A stretch of DNA of 64,000 nucleotides from Bdellovibrionota bacterium. Its GTDB lineage: Bacteria > Bdellovibrionota > FAC87 > UBA2466 > JACKAF01. Position 1 is the first letter of the stretch, and each line of letters opens with the position of its first letter. A program made the position numbers and the translations under genes. Positions 46,886 to 58,135 of this stretch are shown here, in pieces. Where the stretch lies: contig JBGSIC010000013.1 in NCBI GenBank assembly GCA_041751875.1, positions 11,858-75,857 on the forward strand, given 5' to 3'. The notes below the pieces were generated by a model. That model saw only the letters and a program-made list of their open reading frames with translations, had not been told where the DNA came from and ran no database searches.

Positions 46886-48250
46886 TCAATTACTTAATGG
46901 GAGATTCACCGTAAAGCGGCTGCCCTTATCGGGCTGGCTGGCTACCGAAATGGTACCGTGAAGCGATTGCACCAGATGCTTAACAATAGAGAGGCCCAGG
47001 CCGGTGCCGCTGATTTCGCTGGAACGGGCTTTATCCACTCGGTAAAAGCGCTCGAAAATCCGCTCATGCTCTTGCCGAGGAATCCCCACGCCATCGTCTT
47101 CGACTTCAATCTGGGCGCTTTCGCTGTCTTTCTTCACACGCAAGACAATGGTGCCGGGAGCGGGAGTGTACTTGATCGCATTATCAATCAGGTTATGTGT
47201 CACCTGACGAATCGCTTTCTCATCTCCCCAAACGAAAACGCTTTCGGGAAAAAGTTGGCGTTGCAACTCAAGTCCCTTTCCTTTGATCGCCAGTTCATGA
47301 TCCTGCACGCTTTCGCTCACAATGCGATTTAAGTCGACGGCAGATAAAGGAAGTGAATCCTTATTCGCTTCGATGCGCGCCAGAGTGAGAAGATCTTGCA
47401 CTTGCTCAACCAGCTGGTCGACTTTCCCTTCAATTTTCCTTAAGAAACGAACGTTATTTTTTTCGTCGAAAAGTGCCCCACCGATGAGCGTCTCGACGTA
47501 TCCTTTTATGGCGGTCAAAGGAGTTTTAAGTTCGTGCGATACGTTGGCAACGAACTCTTTGCGCACGCCTTCTAAGCGCCGTAGTTCAGTAATGTCGTGG
47601 AACACAACGACCACGCCTTGATCACTGTCGCCCGAAAGAGGCGTGGCTTGTACTTCCAACATCAGCTCTTCTTTCACGCCGCGGACCGAAATTTCTCCCT
47701 TAATCGAACTACCTTGCGTGCGGGTGGTTTCGACGATTTCCTTAATGGGCAGAAGCTGCACAAACTCCCACAACCGTTGAGCAGTGTGGCCTAAGGCAGA
47801 TTCGCCCAGCAGAAGGCGGGCGGCGTCGTTACAGAAAAGAATTTTGTCCTCTTGATCTACAGCGATCACACCTTCCACCATGCTGGCTAGCATCGCGCGA
47901 AACTGCGCGCGCTCATGTGACAGAGATCCCACTCGGGCTTCCAGATCTTTTCCCAACGCTTTCAACGTACGATCCAGTTCACCGAAGCTGCCCGACGACA
48001 GTTTTCCCTTGGCCGAGTAACGTCCCTCTCGCAGGCCCTCGACAAATTTTTGAATCGAATCCAAGGGAGCGAACATTTTACTTAAGGCGCGATGAGAAAG
48101 AATGAGGGAAACGATAACCGCGAGCAGCATACCGAACAGAACTGCCCAGCCACTCACCGAGGTCGCCGAAAAAAAGACAGGGGTCACCCCTACCAAAAAA
48201 CTGATCAAACCAATGCTGAAGAACTTCCAATAGTATGGATGTTTGAACAC
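46886..48250 (-). CDS. phoR: Phosphate regulon sensor histidine kinase
   Basis: Two N-terminal transmembrane segments, a HAMP/PAS region, an H-box SHELKTPLT, and HATPase N/G boxes (DNAIKYT, GTGLGLSIV). Confidence 0.8.
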   Translation of the reverse strand: MFKHPYYWKFFSIGLISFLVGVTPVFFSATSVSGWAVLFGMLLAVIVSLILSHRALSKMFAPLDSIQKFVEGLREGRYSAKGKLSSGSFGELDRTLKALGKDLEARVGSLSHERAQFRAMLASMVEGVIAVDQEDKILFCNDAARLLLGESALGHTAQRLWEFVQLLPIKEIVETTRTQGSSIKGEISVRGVKEELMLEVQATPLSGDSDQGVVVVFHDITELRRLEGVRKEFVANVSHELKTPLTAIKGYVETLIGGALFDEKNNVRFLRKIEGKVDQLVEQVQDLLTLARIEANKDSLPLSAVDLNRIVSESVQDHELAIKGKGLELQRQLFPESVFVWGDEKAIRQVTHNLIDNAIKYTPAPGTIVLRVKKDSESAQIEVEDDGVGIPRQEHERIFERFYRVDKARSSEISGTGLGLSIVKHLVQSLHGTISVASQPDKGSRFTVNLPLSN

Positions 48251-48987
48251 TATAACTCTTTAAACTTGTACCCCACACCGCGCACAGTGGTAATCAAATC
48301 GCCCGCTTCATCACCCAGTTTGCGTCGGATAGCACCGATATGCACATCGACATTGCGCTCGACTACGATGGATTCTCCACCGGTGACTTTTTCAATCAGT
48401 TGCTGACGGGTAAAAACCCGCCCCGGTTTTGCCGCCAGTGTCTTAAGCAACCGAAACTCCGCTGCTGTCACTTCAACCAGTTCATCGCTCAAACGGACTT
48501 CGTGGCGTTCGGAATCTATTTTAAGAGGACCCACTTCAATTTCAGGAGCCGTAGCAACATTGGGAGTGCCCGTGCGACGCAAAATCGCTCGCATGCGAGC
48601 AATCAGTTCACGAGGGCTAAAGGGTTTGGTCAGATAATCATCCGCACCAAGTTCCAAACCAATCACCTTGTCTGCTTCTTCACCCTTGGCGGTTAGCATG
48701 ATCAAAGGAATCCCACGCGTTTCCGGATTTTCTTTGAGCATCCGGCAAACTTCGAGACCGCTCATTCCCGGTAGCATGAGATCCAACAGGATCAGGGCCG
48801 GCTTGCGCGAAACCGCTTCCTGATAACCGCTGTGTCCCTCGCGTGCGGTGTAGACTCGAAAGCCTTCCCGCTCGAGGTTATAAACAAGGATTTCAACGAT
48901 ATCCGGTTCGTCTTCTACAACTAAGATTTTCTTGTTTTCGACCGCCATAGGAGCCCCCTCATACCCTAATCGTGGTAACGGGATCAA
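48250..48987 (-). CDS. phoB: Phosphate regulon response regulator
   Basis: Receiver domain (DEPDIVEIL...LDLMLPG) plus an OmpR/PhoB winged-helix C-terminus (RGVGYKF). Confidence 0.85.
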   Translation of the reverse strand: MIPLPRLGYEGAPMAVENKKILVVEDEPDIVEILVYNLEREGFRVYTAREGHSGYQEAVSRKPALILLDLMLPGMSGLEVCRMLKENPETRGIPLIMLTAKGEEADKVIGLELGADDYLTKPFSPRELIARMRAILRRTGTPNVATAPEIEVGPLKIDSERHEVRLSDELVEVTAAEFRLLKTLAAKPGRVFTRQQLIEKVTGGESIVVERNVDVHIGAIRRKLGDEAGDLITTVRGVGYKFKEL

Positions 48988-50497: not shown

Positions 50498-51556
50498 ATG
50501 AGCCATCCTTCAAGATGGTCGGGCTTAGACGGCGCTAAATTTCTCTGCATTTTGTTCATGGTCTTTATCCACGCCACCTTCTGGTTGGTGACGGACCAGG
50601 ACGAAGTCATGAATACACGCTCGTTTCTTTATCCGATCATAAATCACACCACGTTTCTGGGCCTCTTTCCCTTAAGCCTACCGATCACGGCGGGCTGTGG
50701 TCTGCGTTTCTACTTAGAAAAAATTCGCACACACACCGATTGGGAGAGTTTTCGTCTCCTGCCTCTCCTTAAGATCTCAATTGGCATTATGCTGTTGGGC
50801 TATGTGATGACGCTACTCACGTGGGGTGGTGGCCACGCCTTTGAGTGGGACGTGTTGCACTTTGTTGGTTTGAGTTACTTGGTCATCGCGCTAGCTCTGA
50901 AGGTGACGACGGTCCCGGTATTCGCCGTACTCGGTTTCTTCAGTTTTCTCCTCACCGATATTGTGCGACAGCTTGTTGGTGCCAATCCCGGCTTCCTGGG
51001 TGCCGTACTGGTAGGCGACCAATCGGGAGACTTTTTCTGGCCGTTCTTTCCTTGGTTCTCCACCGTGGTCTTTGGTTTTGTACTCGCTCATTGTTACATA
51101 CGTTTCGGCAAATCAAGCCGCTTTCAGTGGGGCTTAGGGCTTATCGCTTTACTGGGACTCGGGTTTGCGTACACCAACCAAGACTTAGCGCTGGTGTTGG
51201 ATCCACAATTTGTCTGGGGCCCGGGCGTGTTTCAGCCACCTCTGGGTTTTATCGTCGGCCTCATGGGGTTCTTCTCACTCCTGCTTCTTATCTTCGATGG
51301 GCTTAATGCATACTGGCCTCCTTCTCCCAACGGCGTCGTGCGTTCCTTCAGCCAAGGAATTCTGTGGATTTACCTCGCGCACATCATTGTGGGAGCCAGA
51401 CTGGCCCAACTTTATGTGAAATGGATTCCACTCTCTCTTTGGACTGTACTTCTCTTTGCTTTCCTCATGATTCTTTTCTCTTGGTTTGTCGGCAGGCTAA
51501 GTGTCCGCCTTGCGGAGAAACAACTTCGAATCACTTTGGTAAAGGTGAAAAATTGA
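50498..51556 (+). CDS. Integral membrane protein, acyltransferase-3 (OatA/NolL-like) family; tentative
   Basis: RWSGLDGAKFLCILFMVFIHA resembles the R-x-x-LD-x-x-R/K...H N-terminal motif of acyltransferase-3 membrane proteins. About 10 transmembrane segments. Confidence 0.4.
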   Translation: MSHPSRWSGLDGAKFLCILFMVFIHATFWLVTDQDEVMNTRSFLYPIINHTTFLGLFPLSLPITAGCGLRFYLEKIRTHTDWESFRLLPLLKISIGIMLLGYVMTLLTWGGGHAFEWDVLHFVGLSYLVIALALKVTTVPVFAVLGFFSFLLTDIVRQLVGANPGFLGAVLVGDQSGDFFWPFFPWFSTVVFGFVLAHCYIRFGKSSRFQWGLGLIALLGLGFAYTNQDLALVLDPQFVWGPGVFQPPLGFIVGLMGFFSLLLLIFDGLNAYWPPSPNGVVRSFSQGILWIYLAHIIVGARLAQLYVKWIPLSLWTVLLFAFLMILFSWFVGRLSVRLAEKQLRITLVKVKN

Positions 51557-53673
51557 GCGATTCCAGACGCCCCTCACCGCAGCCGGCTACGCCCCCTCGT
51601 CCGGCACCTTCCTACAAAAACGATGACGTATGCATCGTGGGAGTGGGTTGCGTGCTACCTGAGGCGTCGGATACTCAGGCCTTCTGGAACAATCTGTTGC
51701 AAGCCCGTTGCTCAATCGCTCCCATGCCTTCCACCCGTTGGGACGCAAATCTTTACGTGTCGCCTGATCCCAAAGCGGAAGACATGACTTACTCATCCAA
51801 AGCAGCATTCGTTCGAGATGAGCAAATGGAAACGATTACTAAAAAAAGAAAATGGAGCGGCCGTGGCTACAATCGCCTCCAAGCGATGACCCTCGAGGCG
51901 TCACTACAAGCACTAGAGAACATAAGTGCCGAGGACCGATCCAAAAACCTTTGCGGCGTTTTCCTCGGTTGTATGGGAGCGGATGAAGAACTTTCGGTGC
52001 AAAAGCTACTGGAAGAAGAGCAAAGCGTGCTTTCTTACCTTGAACAAGAAGCCGGTCCCCACCTGGAAGACTTGCGTTCCGCAACAGCTCAAACATTTCA
52101 GCACCTGCGCAAGAACCGAACCTCGCGGAAAGAAGCTGTCCTAGCGACTTCCGTTTTGGCGACGGTAAAAAAGGAACTGGGGCTAAGGGGCGAAGCGTGC
52201 CTGGTAGATGCGGCTTGCGCCTCTTCCCTCGCTGCGCTGGATCTAGCGATTGGCCACTTACGCGCAGGAAACTGTCATATCGCCCTGGCGGGGGGCATCG
52301 AAGGACAGCTGGCCCCTGAAAACTTTGTGGTCTTTAGCCAAGTGGGCCTACTGGCGCAAGACCTTCCCCACCCTTTAGACGAAAGTGCCGACGGTCTTTG
52401 CCAAGGCGAAGGTGCCGTGGTGTTTGCTTTGCAACGCCTTTCGGACGCGCGCGCAGAGGGCCGCAAGATCCTGGGTGTCCTTCGCGCTTCGGGTGGCTCA
52501 AGTAACGGCAAAGCATCTAGTCTCTTTTCCCCCACCGTAAATGGACAGACGACTGCTATCTCCCGTTCACGCCAGAAATCCAGCTCCGCGCTATTCGACT
52601 ACATCGAGTGCCACGGCACGGGAACTCGCACAGGGGATCGTACTGAACTTCGTGCCCTGAATGAAATGCAAAAAGGAGCAAAAGAAAAAACGCCTGTAGG
52701 ATCCGTAAAGGCTCTCATCGGACACACCAAAGGCGCCGCAGGCGCAGCCGGCCTTTTAAAGTGCTTGTTGAGCCTACAAAACAAAACGGTTCCCCCGTCA
52801 CCTTATTTCACGCGATTCGCGGAATCCGATAGCCTCTCCCAACTTACGGTGAACACACAGCCCCTATCGCTTGCCGACAGACCTAGTCCCCTTTGCCTTG
52901 GCGTAAGCTCCGCGGGGTTTGGCGGCGCCAACTACCATATGCTTTTGGAGGAATACCTACCGCAAGCTCCTGCGGTTTCCGGTTTACCTCTGCTCACCAC
53001 CCGGATCGCTTTAATCGCCCAAACTCAGGTTAATGATCCCCATGTCGCCGAGGCTTTGGCTTCCTACAAATTCAAACTGCCACCGAAGAACCTAGCGCAA
53101 ATCGATACGCTTCAATTGCAAGCCATCGTAGCGGTGGCCCACGCGCTGCGAGACTTTCATCTTCCTCTAAACAGTTTTGACCGTACAAAAGTATCGGTGT
53201 TTTCCTGCGGATGCACCGGCATCGAAGCTTCCTACCAATTTTCAAAACGCGTTCGACACAAAGAGTTTCATCGCTTCGCTTCCGGAGAAAAAGCAGCTGT
53301 CCTAGAAAAACACAAAGCAAAGTTTCCCGCAGTCACTGAAGACACGGGGCCCGGAATTTTGAACAACGTCATCGCCGGACGTGTCTGCAACGTTTTTGAT
53401 TTTATGGGAAAGAACTTTAATCTCGATGCCGACATGGCATCCCTAGGTTGCGCCTTCGAAATGGCGTCCATTGAACTACGTTCGCGAAGTAGCGATCTGG
53501 TGATTGTTTTACAGGCGGAAGAAACGTTTAACGAGAACGAATGCGAGATCTCGCGACAAGGCATCCGTTGCTACTTTCTTACGCTGTTGGATTCAGCGCG
53601 ACGCGACAACCGCACCATTTTAAGTTTGCTAAACGACGTTCACTACGAAGAAACATGGCCGGTCCAAGCCTAA
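51553..53673 (+). CDS. Polyketide/PUFA-synthase-type beta-ketoacyl synthase (KS) with a C-terminal degenerate KS-like remnant
   Basis: KS motifs are present: DVCIVGVGCVLPEASDTQAFW, DAACASSLAALDLAIGHLRAGN (active Cys), ECHGTGTRTGD and GHTKGAAGAAGL. The C-terminal NVIAGRVCNVFDFMGKNFNLDADMASLG...SSDLVIV resembles a second KS in which Cys is replaced by Met. The start (TTG 51553) is uncertain. Confidence 0.75.
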   Translation: MSDSRRPSPQPATPPRPAPSYKNDDVCIVGVGCVLPEASDTQAFWNNLLQARCSIAPMPSTRWDANLYVSPDPKAEDMTYSSKAAFVRDEQMETITKKRKWSGRGYNRLQAMTLEASLQALENISAEDRSKNLCGVFLGCMGADEELSVQKLLEEEQSVLSYLEQEAGPHLEDLRSATAQTFQHLRKNRTSRKEAVLATSVLATVKKELGLRGEACLVDAACASSLAALDLAIGHLRAGNCHIALAGGIEGQLAPENFVVFSQVGLLAQDLPHPLDESADGLCQGEGAVVFALQRLSDARAEGRKILGVLRASGGSSNGKASSLFSPTVNGQTTAISRSRQKSSSALFDYIECHGTGTRTGDRTELRALNEMQKGAKEKTPVGSVKALIGHTKGAAGAAGLLKCLLSLQNKTVPPSPYFTRFAESDSLSQLTVNTQPLSLADRPSPLCLGVSSAGFGGANYHMLLEEYLPQAPAVSGLPLLTTRIALIAQTQVNDPHVAEALASYKFKLPPKNLAQIDTLQLQAIVAVAHALRDFHLPLNSFDRTKVSVFSCGCTGIEASYQFSKRVRHKEFHRFASGEKAAVLEKHKAKFPAVTEDTGPGILNNVIAGRVCNVFDFMGKNFNLDADMASLGCAFEMASIELRSRSSDLVIVLQAEETFNENECEISRQGIRCYFLTLLDSARRDNRTILSLLNDVHYEETWPVQA

Positions 53674-56600
53674 AATCGTCCGCCCCGCTTTCCGCCAAAG
53701 GAATCTTTGGCGGCGGCTATCAGGTCGGATTCACGCCTTTCGCGGAACCGTTGCGCTCCTATTCCTCCGTGTGTTTTGTTTTTGCGGGCCAGGGAGCGAT
53801 TTACCCCGGCATGTTCGCCCACCTCTATCAACAGTTTGAAAGCGTACGCCAAGTTTTTGTAAAAGCGGATGCAGAGGCGACTCGCCTGGGCCTTCCTTCC
53901 GTGTCCGCTTTCGTGGTCAATCCGCAAAGTCTAACCGATACCCAGAAACACCAGGTACAAAACCTTTGCCTCTTTGCCGGTGAACTAGCCATCGCGGAGC
54001 TGCTACTTAACGCCAAGATTTATCCTAAGGCGCTTACGGCCCACAGTTTCGGCGAGTATGCAGCGCTGGTATGCGCGGGTATTGTGCCCTTCGAACAGAT
54101 GTTCGAACTCGTCGCGTTTCGCGAAGTACAATCACCGCCGAAAAACGAAAAAGGCTATCTGGTCGCGATTCACGCCGATGAAGCGTTTACCAAACAACTT
54201 CTAAAATCTTTTCCGTGCCCGATTTCTAACTTAAACAGCGCTTCCCAAACGGTTGTTGCCTGCCCCCCGGAGAAACTGAGCGCTTTGGATGAGTTTCTCA
54301 CTAAGGAAGGTGTGCGCCACAAGGTGCTGCCCACACCCCAACCCTATCACTCTTCCTTTTTGTCAGAGATGCCCCCCAAAATGCGCGCCTGGTTGGGAGC
54401 ACACAAACTCACGCTTCATTCGGCAACTCTTCCCGTTTTCTCATCGGTAACACATGCGTGGGTCGAGGAACCCTCGCGGGATGTTCCTTTTATCATCGAG
54501 AACCAAATGACCGAGCGAGTGGATTTCATCGATCAAATCCATTCGATTTCGCGATACGGTTGCGACCAGTTCATTGAAATTGGGCCGGCAATGGTACTCA
54601 CACCGTTAATTGAAACCATTACCGGTCTCCCTCGCCACCGTTTGGCCTTGGCCGACGATTACTTCGAAGACTACAAGAAACACGCGGCCGTCCGAGAAGA
54701 ACGACGTTCCCCCAACAGCAATAAGCTTTTAGAAAGTATCAACCGCATTATCAGCTCGGTGACGGGATACCGAATTGAAGACATTTCCGTGGAAGATAAG
54801 TTTCAAGAAGACTTGGGAATCGATTCCATCAAAAAAACGGAAATTGTTTTTTCGGTGTTTGATGAGGTCCGCAAGGAAGGTTTGACCGGCATTAACACCG
54901 CGGGAATTCACCAAGTAGGTGACCTGCTTCAGGTACTGGAGAACGCGCAGCAGAACCCCATCGTACCCGCGCACACTCAACCGGCAGCGTTTGCTAGATT
55001 TCAAAAAACGTGGACGGCTTGCGAACTTGTCGTTGATATTCCTTCCCCCCTTCCCACTCTCTACATCGACATTGATTTTTCGACTTCCCGTCCCCTGGAT
55101 CGGGCGACCTGGAGAAAGCTGCGCCGCCTGTCCAAAGAGGGCCGTTTCAACTGCGTCCTCATGTATCCACCATCGGCGATTGACTGGGATTTTTTGGCAC
55201 CCGACGCGCTTCGCAAAGTAATCGAAGGAAAAATTCTTCCACTGATGAAGGTAGTACAAAAGTTTATTCGTTCTCACCAAAGTGCCTTTGAAGGGACTCT
55301 CGCTCTGGTCAGCCAGGGAAAGAAAGATCCCCTGGCGCAAGGTTTCGCTGCTTTCCTCAAAAGTGTAAGGAAGGAGAATCCCAAAAGCTTTGTAAAGCAC
55401 GTCCACTTCGAAACACCTCTCCCGCCCGAAGCATTGGGTGCGCAACTTTTTAAAGAGCTCCAGGACGTCACCAGTCCGGAAGTCGTCTACCGCCGAGGAG
55501 AACGCTATCTCGCATCACTCGAAGCATTGGATGAAGAAGATGGGCTTCCCCACGACGGTCAACCGCGCGTGGTTATCGCCCTGGGGGGAGCGAAGGGAAT
55601 CACTCGCTCACTAGTGGAATCGCTCTCATCCCGTTTCCCGATTCGCCTCTACCTTCTGGGCCGCTCGCCGCAAGCCAGCATTCAATCCTCTCTGCAAAGC
55701 CTCGAGGGCAAGGTCAGCGACTTGAGCTACACAGTGTGTGATGCAACCGACTTCGCGAAGCTAGAACAGACCATTGGTCGCATCTTAGCAAGAGAGAGAA
55801 AGATCGATTTTATTCTCAACGGTGCAGGTATCGAAATCAGCCAGGGCCTGGGTCAGAAGACGGGCTTGGAAATGCGCAAAGAAATTTTTAACAAGGTGCT
55901 GCCCGCGTTCTATCTGACTTGTCTCTGCCGTTCGCTTCCTCAAACTAAGCTTATTCAATTCTCTTCGGTCGTTTCCGAGTTCGGAAACGCTGGGCAAACG
56001 GTTTACGCGTGGGCCAATCAGTTCATCAATACTCTCGGCGAAGTTTGCCAGGGCCAAACCCTTTCCATCGCCTGGCCGCCTTGGGACGGCGTCGGGATGA
56101 CGGCACCCCTAGCGATTCAACAAGGTCTCAAGCGTTTGGGTGTGGGTTTACTTACGCCCGAAAGTGCCGCTGAACTCTTTGAACAAGATCTGGGCCCCGC
56201 CCACGATCGATTGCGAACCGTTTATTACTACGATCCAGCCGACTACCCGGCGTATGGGCTCGCCTTGAGAAAGCTTGCACCGTACGCTCCTTTATTGGGA
56301 ACGCCCCTACTCGTAGGGGGAAAGGCCGCATTCAGTCGATTGTATGCACCGTCCTCCGATCCTTTTCTCCAAGATCACCGAGTAGGCGGACGCGCTTACC
56401 TGCCCGGAGCAGTCGGTGCCGCTCTCTTGCTGGGCCTTGGGCGCGCTTCGCTTGGTTACTACCCTCGTCTGGAAAGCTTGAAGTTCACTCAACCGATTAT
56501 TTTTCCGGAAAAGAAAACGGCCCTGACCAGCGTTTACAACCCCCGTACGCATACCGGCGAGGTGGGGTTGGGTTCACCCGCCTTTATCGCCCATTTCCGC

Positions 56601-57071
56601 TCGCCTCGAAGAGCGCCATCCGTTTTGCGACTCCCCGCGGAAACCAGCCCCCTTCCCACTGAAAATTTTTACGGGCCGCAAGGGATGTTTCATGGCCCGA
56701 GCTTTCAGCTCGTCGATAAAGCGTGGAAGCACGGAACGCATCATGTAAGAGTGCTGCTCAAACACGGATTAGCTCCCATTTTGGATAATGGTTTGGGTGG
56801 CAAACTCTCCCAGTGGATTGACGGGGCCTTTCAGTCCCTCGCCCTCTTCCCCCTAACAGAAGAGAAAGCTCTTTTCCTTCCCGTGGAAGTAGGTGAACTC
56901 GAAGTTTTCTTGGCCTCCTCGCCTCTGGAGGCTCACTGGATCTATGTAGAACGCACGGGGCAAAGTTCTTCTCATGTGGAGGGCAGCGCTCAGGTTCTTA
57001 ACGAAAAGCTGGAGTGCCTCGTCTCTCTCACGGGCGTTCAGTGTCAGCTTGCGATGCCGTCAAAAACCTAA
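53655..57071 (+). CDS. PfaA-like multidomain PKS protein: acyltransferase - acyl carrier protein - ketoreductase - dehydratase
   Basis: AT: FVFAGQGAIYPGM and AHSFGEYAA (GHSxG). ACP: DLGIDSIKKTEI. KR: VVIALGGAKGITRSL Rossmann motif and SSVVSEFGNAGQTVYAWANQ. DH: HRVGGRAYLPGA (HxxxGxxxxP) and DGAFQS. The ATG at 53655 overlaps the KS stop by 19 nt. Confidence 0.8.
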   Translation: MAGPSLKSSAPLSAKGIFGGGYQVGFTPFAEPLRSYSSVCFVFAGQGAIYPGMFAHLYQQFESVRQVFVKADAEATRLGLPSVSAFVVNPQSLTDTQKHQVQNLCLFAGELAIAELLLNAKIYPKALTAHSFGEYAALVCAGIVPFEQMFELVAFREVQSPPKNEKGYLVAIHADEAFTKQLLKSFPCPISNLNSASQTVVACPPEKLSALDEFLTKEGVRHKVLPTPQPYHSSFLSEMPPKMRAWLGAHKLTLHSATLPVFSSVTHAWVEEPSRDVPFIIENQMTERVDFIDQIHSISRYGCDQFIEIGPAMVLTPLIETITGLPRHRLALADDYFEDYKKHAAVREERRSPNSNKLLESINRIISSVTGYRIEDISVEDKFQEDLGIDSIKKTEIVFSVFDEVRKEGLTGINTAGIHQVGDLLQVLENAQQNPIVPAHTQPAAFARFQKTWTACELVVDIPSPLPTLYIDIDFSTSRPLDRATWRKLRRLSKEGRFNCVLMYPPSAIDWDFLAPDALRKVIEGKILPLMKVVQKFIRSHQSAFEGTLALVSQGKKDPLAQGFAAFLKSVRKENPKSFVKHVHFETPLPPEALGAQLFKELQDVTSPEVVYRRGERYLASLEALDEEDGLPHDGQPRVVIALGGAKGITRSLVESLSSRFPIRLYLLGRSPQASIQSSLQSLEGKVSDLSYTVCDATDFAKLEQTIGRILARERKIDFILNGAGIEISQGLGQKTGLEMRKEIFNKVLPAFYLTCLCRSLPQTKLIQFSSVVSEFGNAGQTVYAWANQFINTLGEVCQGQTLSIAWPPWDGVGMTAPLAIQQGLKRLGVGLLTPESAAELFEQDLGPAHDRLRTVYYYDPADYPAYGLALRKLAPYAPLLGTPLLVGGKAAFSRLYAPSSDPFLQDHRVGGRAYLPGAVGAALLLGLGRASLGYYPRLESLKFTQPIIFPEKKTALTSVYNPRTHTGEVGLGSPAFIAHFRSPRRAPSVLRLPAETSPLPTENFYGPQGMFHGPSFQLVDKAWKHGTHHVRVLLKHGLAPILDNGLGGKLSQWIDGAFQSLALFPLTEEKALFLPVEVGELEVFLASSPLEAHWIYVERTGQSSSHVEGSAQVLNEKLECLVSLTGVQCQLAMPSKT

Positions 57072-57088
57072 AAAGGAAAGGAGCTCAC

Positions 57089-58135
57089 TTGGCTGGTCAA
57101 AAGCAGTTACGAGTCTTAGTACTCGCTCACCAAGAATTGCTCCCCCCAGAAGGCGCACTCACTCATCAGTCCAAGGGCGCCGACTGGAAGACCGAGTTTG
57201 ATGTTCTAAAAGCACTCAAAGCGCTGGGCTACGAGGTTCGCATTCTTGGGTTGGAAAATGACCTAGGGCCCGTTCGCGGAGCAATTTACGAATTTCAGCC
57301 AAACCTGGTTTTCAATTTGATGGAAGATTTTCACAACGTGCCGATCTTTGACGGCAATATTGTGAGCTATCTCGAGCTCCTCAAAATTCCCTACACCGGT
57401 TGCAATCCGCGTGGCCTGATGATGGCGAAAGACAAGGGCATCAGTAAAAAAATATTTCACTACCACGGAATTCGTACGCCCGATTTTGCGATATTTCCGC
57501 GCAACCAACGCGTTAGGGTTCCCAAGGAACTCAAGTACCCTCTCATCGTAAAATCACTGACCGAAGAAGCTTCTTTTGGTATCTCCCAGTCATCAATTGT
57601 TTACGACGAGCAGAAACTGCGAGAGCGCATTCAGTTTGTCCATGAGAATACAATCACCGATGCGCTTGTGGAGTCCTACATTTCAGGCCGCGAGCTTTAT
57701 GTCGGCATGATCGGCAATCAGCGCACGGAAGTCTTCCCGATTTGGGAACTTCTGTTCCGCAAGCCCACGGATCAAATTGAACGCATCGCCTCACGACGCG
57801 CTAAGTGGAGCCCTAGCTATCGAAAGAAATATGGCATTACTTCGGGTTTGGCTCGCTCGCTTTCCGACGCCCAGCGTGGGGAACTCGAAGCAACTTGCAA
57901 GCTTGCCTACCGTGCTCTCGGCTTGAATGGTTATGCGCGACTCGACTTCCGTTTGGCGCAAGACGGCACACCTTTTCTCCTCGAGGTAAACCCCAACCCA
58001 CATCTTGGAAACGGCGAGGACTTCGCTGAATCAGCTTCCAGAAAGGGTTTGCGGTACACTGATCTCATCCAAAAAATTGTTAGCCTGGGACTTAGCTGGC
58101 AGCCAGAAGGCCCGTCCGTTTGGGTCTCCGCTTAA
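57089..58135 (+). CDS. ATP-grasp ligase, D-alanine--D-alanine ligase-like
   Basis: YPLIVKSLTEEASFGIS (ATP-grasp K-loop) and ARLDFRLAQDGTPFLLEVNPNPHL (Mg-binding E-x-N). TTG start at 57089 with a GGAAAGGAG RBS. Confidence 0.7.
   Translation: MAGQKQLRVLVLAHQELLPPEGALTHQSKGADWKTEFDVLKALKALGYEVRILGLENDLGPVRGAIYEFQPNLVFNLMEDFHNVPIFDGNIVSYLELLKIPYTGCNPRGLMMAKDKGISKKIFHYHGIRTPDFAIFPRNQRVRVPKELKYPLIVKSLTEEASFGISQSSIVYDEQKLRERIQFVHENTITDALVESYISGRELYVGMIGNQRTEVFPIWELLFRKPTDQIERIASRRAKWSPSYRKKYGITSGLARSLSDAQRGELEATCKLAYRALGLNGYARLDFRLAQDGTPFLLEVNPNPHLGNGEDFAESASRKGLRYTDLIQKIVSLGLSWQPEGPSVWVSA

Follow-up and report, generated by a model that had tools for sequence, protein, structure and literature searches.

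A ketosynthase with a probable chain-length-factor-like half-domain in a conserved operon of Bdellovibrionota and other small-celled lineages

Why should a protein that already contains a ketosynthase (KS) carry at its C-terminus a second ketosynthase-like segment, devoid of the catalytic cysteine and ending halfway through the fold? This question is raised by a 64,000-nucleotide window of DNA from a Bdellovibrionota bacterium (GenBank assembly GCA_041751875.1, contig JBGSIC010000013.1, positions 11,858 to 75,857 of the forward strand; coordinates below are those of the window), in which the gene for such a protein runs into a gene for a subunit with acyltransferase, acyl carrier protein, ketoreductase and dehydratase domains (AT-ACP-KR-DH). 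The original prediction, made from the sequence alone, took the C-terminal segment, here called the tail, for a compressed KS of about 190 aa that had decayed and was split across the gene junction or, alternatively, for the trace of a frameshift in a PfaA-like gene that had once been undivided. The analysis presented here points instead to an active ketosynthase followed by a catalytically dead half-ketosynthase, similar to a chain length factor (CLF) and packed on the KS, both encoded in a conserved operon. A probability of about 0.65 is given to this reading.

The tail of the ketosynthase protein

The C-terminal 210 aa alone (53041-53670) match PF00109, the KS N-terminal domain, with E=2e-11 (positions 74-205 of a 252-position profile), as well as the PfaA model TIGR02813 with E=4e-14 over positions 79-229. 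PF00109 is likewise matched by each of 27 homologous tails, with a best E-value of 1.2e-19, while no other family was found in them at E<=0.01 and the KS C-terminal domain PF02801 appeared in none (0/27). The comparison of the tail profile with the KS profile of the same family by hhalign gave a probability of 98.3% (E=1.6e-13) and placed tail positions 1-229 on KS positions 56-307, so that the tail ends at KS position ~307, where the N-half of the KS fold gives way to the C-half. This homology is visible by profile methods only: BLASTP between the tail and its own KS domain gave no significant match, and phmmer with the single tail found nothing in the PDB. The KS-like domain claimed at the outset was thus borne out, as a second domain of this kind without nucleophile, but its supposed compression into 53380-53673 was not: the domain amounts to a nearly complete KS N-half and extends over about 53005-53631.

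At the residue level, NVIAGRVCNVFDFMGKNFNLDADMASLG aligns with the active-site stretch of the Pks13 ketosynthase and places a Met (codon 53434-53436) at the position of the nucleophile Cys, precisely the replacement that had been read from the sequence. The motif SSDLVIV, also proposed as a KS landmark, indeed aligns with the strand that follows the active-site stretch. By contrast, VSVFSCGCTG, which had been equated with IAIVGMxCRFPG, is aligned to the fold's second strand, which in Pks13 reads VGVYIGSS, and the first strand of the tail corresponds approximately to RIALIAQTQ in the AlphaFold2 (AF2) model described below. Across the family, the position of the nucleophile is occupied by M, T, F, L, Q, Y, K, E, I or S, and at least 90% of the sequences keep the Asp ahead of it. 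The tail profile also aligns with residues 538-694 of the CLF in 6riw, the structure of the PfaC KS-CLF didomain, where, as in the tail, 'NS' follows the position of the dead nucleophile.

The tail belongs to a widespread protein. Whole-protein searches returned a large family of ~690-aa proteins with 33-51% identity and 95-100% query coverage, which by their source names come from Bdellovibrionota, Patescibacteria, Nanoarchaeota and Candidatus Xenobiia. A phmmer search, run exhaustively with the tail as query, collected 258 representatives at E<=1e-10 and 1742 at E<=1e-3, the weaker ones including ordinary KS domains; a word-index protein search with the tail alone returned nothing, the self match included, which is read as a limit of short queries and not as absence. 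In an alignment of 60 family sequences, the conservation of the tail per block (0.5-0.68) is similar to that of the KS core, and the signature motifs FKIPPxSLxQID and TEDTGPGxLNNVIAGRVCNxFDFxGKNFNVDxDxNS stand out. Between L006 and L007, two related loci whose proteins are 85% identical, the proportion of nonsynonymous differences (pN) is lower in the tail (0.074) than in the KS part (0.109), and synonymous sites are saturated (pS 0.78-0.88). Therefore, the tail is under strong purifying selection.

The preceding KS domain retains the complete catalytic apparatus. Residues C206, H338 and H375, found in the Cys-His-His motifs DAACASS, ECHGTGT and IGHTKGAAG, are invariant in the 60-sequence alignment. 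Among solved structures, the KS of PfaC (6riw) gave the best full-length KS alignment (277.7 bits), and the best NCBIfam match of the whole protein is the PfaA model TIGR02813, at 244.4 bits versus a cut-off of 1010.1; the protein passes no NCBIfam model.

The predicted structure places both domains in a single body. The AF2 model of the whole protein, built with the family alignment, has a pLDDT of 94.8 and a predicted template modelling score (pTM) of 0.95. In this model the tail adopts the order strand-helix-strand-helix-strand-helix-strand-strand and ends where the C-terminal half would start. Modelled alone, it retains a pLDDT of 87.4 and a pTM of 0.85, and Foldseek relates it to ketosynthases only (FabF, FabB, the AntDE type II KS complex and Pks13). 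The best solved match of the whole model is 6riw, with a TM-score of 0.80 normalised to the query, whereas the other listed matches, KS and KS-AT structures that cover the KS part only, reach 0.50-0.56, roughly the contribution of the KS part by itself. This difference implies that KS on KS and tail on CLF superpose simultaneously and, thus, that the tail has a CLF-like placement in the model. The tail is predicted to pack on the KS in CLF-like geometry, forming an intramolecular pseudo-heterodimer of 1.5 thiolase folds. Of the initial description of the tail as a decayed CLF-like or second KS domain, the CLF-like position and predicted geometry hold (TM-score of 0.80 to 6riw), while decay is contradicted by the conserved length and the low pN of 0.074.

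Possible roles of the half-domain

The KS-CLF pair is the classical chain-length-setting device of polyketide and polyunsaturated fatty acid (PUFA) synthases. In a comparable CLF-like role, the half-domain would sit at the dimer interface of the KS, stabilise it and help to close or shape the acyl pocket. It may also replace the usual KS-AT linker and help to dock the separately encoded AT-ACP-KR-DH subunit, a role proposed because the half-domain directly precedes the AT in fused orthologs. Jointly, the two synthase genes would constitute an iterative PfaA/PKSE-like module without enoylreductase (ER) or thioesterase, and the acyl product is probably passed to the membrane acyltransferase encoded upstream, a plausible acceptor-side partner. 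The family most likely arose from a KS-CLF(-AT) ancestor of the PfaC/ORF-B type after the loss of the C-terminal half of the CLF.

Several points weigh against this reading. The tail is no closer in sequence to CLFs than to true KS domains, and its strongest short PDB matches are the KS domains of Pks13, PikA and CTB1; thus, descent from a CLF is deduced from position and geometry, not from phylogeny. The predicted packing of the tail on the KS derives from one AlphaFold model and a global TM-score, and half a thiolase fold should leave bare the face that the C-terminal half usually covers. The AT-docking role and the nature of the product are conjectural. No description of the family, of a truncated CLF or KS, or of the cassette as present in Bdellovibrio, the candidate phyla radiation (CPR) or DPANN was found in the open-access literature.

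The strongest competitor, which is considered appreciably less probable, regards the half-domain chiefly as a scaffold, or as a platform on which the AT docks, that contributes little or nothing to the KS pocket or to chain length. The position of the tail immediately before the AT in fused orthologs fits this idea, as does the conserved leader motif of the AT subunit, which could dock on the half-domain. Moreover, PfaB consists of a KS' pseudo-domain and an AT, and its KS' has been proposed to be a structural scaffold (PMC12895367). Nevertheless, the CLF-like geometry of the model, with its TM-score of 0.80 to 6riw, suggests more than a passive linker, and both roles are not mutually exclusive.

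A further alternative, in which the half-domains of two chains pair into a complete thiolase-like five-layer fold and the tail serves as a dimerisation element, appears improbable. Judging by the thiolase fold in general, an N-terminal half on its own should present an uncovered face at which such pairing could occur; however, the monomer model is already confident and compact (pTM 0.95), and the tail also folds by itself (pTM 0.85).

More tentatively, and with a likelihood clearly below that of the CLF-like half-domain itself, the half-CLF may represent a previously undescribed structural module through which a type I KS functions as an intramolecular pseudo-dimer and recruits the separately encoded AT-ACP-KR-DH subunit. 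The cassette, often with a PPTase, may then constitute an acyl- or polyene-lipid pathway spread by horizontal transfer and typical of small-celled predatory and episymbiotic lineages (Bdellovibrionota, Patescibacteria and DPANN archaea), possibly decorating the cell surface. A conserved half-thiolase partner of a KS would reveal which part of the partner domain is needed and could offer a minimal scaffold for engineering. In addition, the cassette is one of the few synthases of polyketide or fatty-acid type seen on contigs of Patescibacteria and DPANN. Since these organisms are generally thought to depend on their hosts for lipids, the product and role of the cassette are of particular interest.

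The gene junction, the operon and its relatives

The arrangement of the two synthase genes was compared in 27 family loci from species-representative genomes, obtained by a genome scan with an alignment of seven tail sequences. Loci L033-L037 were left out of the family counts, as they are ordinary first-KS matches in other polyketide synthase (PKS) architectures. In 26 of the 27 loci, the KS gene stops 0-32 codons past the tail, and the start of the AT gene, where a motif search found one, lies in any of the three relative frames and overlaps, abuts or is slightly spaced from the KS gene. The comparison with orthologous loci proposed at the outset did uncover fused forms: a single open reading frame (ORF) is found in one locus (L028) and in several database proteins of 1780-1950 aa, five of which (P0123, P0145, P0146, P0162 and P0183) show the order KS-tail-AT-(ACP)-KR-DH in a Pfam scan. 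In these fused orthologs the length of the tail is unchanged and no additional KS sequence precedes the AT. Therefore, a full second KS could not be regained through any indel in the window. Separate KS and AT-ACP-KR-DH genes are the normal state of the family and, given that the same half-domain occurs in fused and split forms, fusion and fission have occurred while the half-domain remained constant.

The junction in the window has the structure described in the original prediction, since the AT-ACP-KR-DH gene starts at 53655 and overlaps the KS stop in a different frame (Table 1). The start at 53655 yields a leader of 38 aa ahead of CFVFAGQG, comparable to the 33-38 aa of homologs, whose leaders share the conserved motif KGYYFGxY...Y.G.DFS.rCFVFPGQG. 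The stretch GIFGGGYQVGF, first interpreted as a remnant of the KS C-terminus, corresponds to this leader motif. As a candidate for the KS C-terminal GFGG strand it was rejected, there being no detectable homology and no conservation of the Gly run in homologs, although the stretch is too short to decide. PF02801 has no match in the AT-ACP-KR-DH protein at E<=1, and nothing KS-like spans the junction. The leader could serve as a peptide through which the AT subunit docks on the half-KS domain. In L028, the sole fused ortholog whose sequence was inspected, the KGYYFGxY motif is not obvious.

These data leave very little room for recent decay, according to which a frameshift or deletion in a single PfaA-like gene, or in a full second KS, left remnants on both sides of the junction. 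The overlap of genes in different frames and the existence of fused orthologs could be taken as signs of such an event, but the same length and endpoint of the tail in hundreds of proteins across phyla, the purifying selection acting on it, the split organisation in 26/27 loci with all frame relations, the lack of additional KS sequence in the fused forms and the lack of KS C-terminal homology in the next gene all contradict it. Equally slight is the chance that the tail is an ordinary KS-AT linker without real KS homology, the outcome that would have refuted the original prediction. A sub-threshold match to PF16197 (25.6 bits versus a cut-off of 33) covers residues 493-557 of the 769-aa ORF, yet it lies upstream of nearly all the tail, whereas the KS N-terminal domain is detected in every homologous tail, the tail aligns with the family's own KS, and its structural matches are ketosynthases only. 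Finally, a programmed -1 ribosomal frameshift producing a fused KS-half-KS-AT-ACP-KR-DH protein would suit the position of the AT gene in the -1 frame, which is open from 53541, but is highly unlikely, as no canonical slippery heptamer was found on reading 53600-53673 and the junctions of homologs occur in all three frames, in some cases between adjacent genes that do not overlap and are separated by stops. Both programmed frameshifting and a recent indel were rejected on this diversity of junctions across loci.

The active KS with its CLF-like half-domain is the second product of a set of genes on the + strand between 50498 and 58135 that overlap or abut one another (Table 1). The likely start of the KS gene is TTG 51553, a choice that relies on three features: the TTG (51553-55) overlaps the TGA (51554-56) of the upstream acyltransferase gene as TTGA; AAAGGTGA lies directly upstream; and the ~690-aa family consensus begins 9 aa ahead of DICIVG in the 60-sequence alignment. 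The 19-nt overlap at the other end of the gene likely reflects translational coupling, and together with the TTGA overlap it would couple translation throughout the operon of acyltransferase, KS-half-KS and AT-ACP-KR-DH genes. On the + strand, no promoter-like or terminator-like sites were found at the gene junctions, and the site counts of the operon do not exceed those of shuffled sequence. A public protein identical to the KS gene product, P0001 (673 aa), starts at GTG 51649, so that DDVCIVGVGC, the first strand and a conserved one, is missing from it; in the public model, the start of the gene seems to be placed too far downstream. Family proteins are at present named just 'beta-ketoacyl synthase N-terminal-like domain-containing protein' or 'hypothetical'.

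Table 1. Features of the cassette and its surroundings, in window coordinates
Feature	Coordinates	Strand	Evidence and remarks
Membrane acyltransferase gene (Acyl_transf_3 / HGSNAT_cat family), first in the cassette	50498..51556	+	Pfam PF07786 E=7e-07, also PF01757
KS-half-KS gene	51553..53673	+	Longest ORF 51364-53673 (GTG 51364); likely start TTG 51553
Active ketosynthase domain	51622..52968	+	PF00109 E=4.4e-59, PF02801 E=1.9e-26
Half-ketosynthase (putatively CLF-like) pseudo-domain	53005..53631	+	N-terminal half of the thiolase fold, without the C-terminal half
Dead active-site motif D-A-D-M-A-S, in place of D-T-A-C-S-S	53425..53442	+	Alignments; Met 53434-53436 at the nucleophile position
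Overlap of AT-ACP-KR-DH start (ATG 53655-57) and KS stop (TAA 53671-53673), 19 nt	53655..53673	+	Sequence
GIFGGGYQVGF, the window's form of the AT-subunit leader motif KGYYFGxY	53700..53732	+	Leaders of homologs
AT-ACP-KR-DH subunit gene	53655..57071	+	Pfam PF00698, PF00550, PF08659, PF21089, PF14765
AT domain (approximate)	53775-54605	+	Pfam
ACP domain (approximate)	54717-54950	+	Pfam
KR domain (approximate)	55569-56087	+	Pfam
DH domain (approximate)	56289-57047	+	Pfam
D-Ala-D-Ala-ligase-like ATP-grasp gene	57014-58135	+	Longest ORF overlaps the 3' end of the synthase gene

The translation of the AT-ACP-KR-DH gene contains the motifs AHSFGE, GIDS, YAWAN and HRVGGRAYLP, and NCBIfam ACP models match its residues 355-432. 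The PfaA model TIGR02813 is its second-best NCBIfam match, with 128.3 bits versus the cut-off of 1010.1.

The synteny of the cassette is kept across Patescibacteria, Nanoarchaeota, Xenobiia and Bdellovibrionota. A homolog of the membrane acyltransferase gene adjoins the KS gene in L001, L002, L004 and L005, and tblastn detects one in most of the related loci. A phosphopantetheinyl transferase (PPTase) gene lies directly downstream in many CPR and DPANN loci; tblastn with the PPTase of L001 found no homolog in the 64-kb window, where the ATP-grasp gene occupies the slot held by the PPTase gene in many relatives. The cassette loci (L001, L002 and L004-L032) are found mainly in predatory or episymbiotic small-celled lineages, namely Bdellovibrionota, Patescibacteria, Woesearchaeota and Nanoarchaeota, a distribution that suggests horizontal spread. 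One cassette contig bears archaeal TBP, MCM and RNase P p30 genes adjoining the cassette. A complete cassette is also present in L016, an 8-kb contig (CAZOOV010000018.1) binned as 'uncultured Methanosarcinales archaeon'; since this contig is so short, misbinning and a genuine archaeal host seem equally likely. In the window itself, genes for a PAS histidine kinase and an OmpR-type response regulator (46886-48987, - strand) are located ~1.5 kb upstream of the cassette, and no tRNA genes were found.

Comparison with known systems

The reduction of a catalytic fold to a conserved structural piece has precedents in megasynthases, as pseudo-KR and pseudo-methyltransferase domains are known in animal fatty acid synthase and PKS enzymes. 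These pseudo-domains belong to other folds, and half a thiolase fold used in such a manner was not found in the literature searched. With respect to the overall architecture, counterparts are found in PfaA and the iterative synthases of enediyne PKSE type, with the domain order KS-AT-ACP(n)-KR-DH and, in PKSE, a PPTase. The two genes of the cassette together give the order KS-AT-ACP-KR-DH, and a PPTase gene follows downstream in many homologous loci. However, the proteins described here score far under the PfaA cut-off, are encoded by two or three genes, contain a single ACP and carry a half-KS between KS and AT, while PfaA joins KS, MAT, tandem ACPs, KR and DH in one protein.

The gammaproteobacterial PfaB also contains a shortened non-catalytic KS' domain, which lacks Cys-His-His, is described as poorly conserved, lies directly N-terminal to the AT and has been proposed as a scaffold (PMC12895367). 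As far as can be judged by description, an inactive shortened KS-like domain directly before the AT is likewise a feature of the fused orthologs. Nevertheless, PfaB has no active KS upstream, whereas the half-domain of the present family shares its chain with an active KS and is strongly conserved, and the AT is usually, as in the window, part of a separate polypeptide.

The closest known system, the KS-CLF didomain of PUFA synthases, represented by PfaC of Moritella marina (6riw), likewise presents an active KS followed by a thiolase-type domain without nucleophile in one chain. Its other relatives include thraustochytrid ORF-B/PfaB and the myxobacterial Pfa2/3-type KS-CLF-AT proteins. The KS protein of the window is nevertheless set apart from this group, because its second domain does not form a complete thiolase fold of ~400 aa with N- and C-halves: it comprises ~210 aa, the N-half only, versus ~420 aa. 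Compared with the CLF of PfaC, the tail lacks a segment of ~50 aa after the first strand (alignment with 6riw) and, compared with the KS of its own family, a loop of ~23 aa (hhalign). Furthermore, PUFA synthases differ in their partners, since the cassette has no DH-DH, ER or tandem ACPs, and its KS protein is paired with just one AT-ACP-KR-DH protein. What both systems share is the colinearity of the tail with the N-half of the CLF and the order KS-(CLF)-AT, which is found in the fused orthologs and in the Myxococcus protein P0112 (KS-KS-AT).

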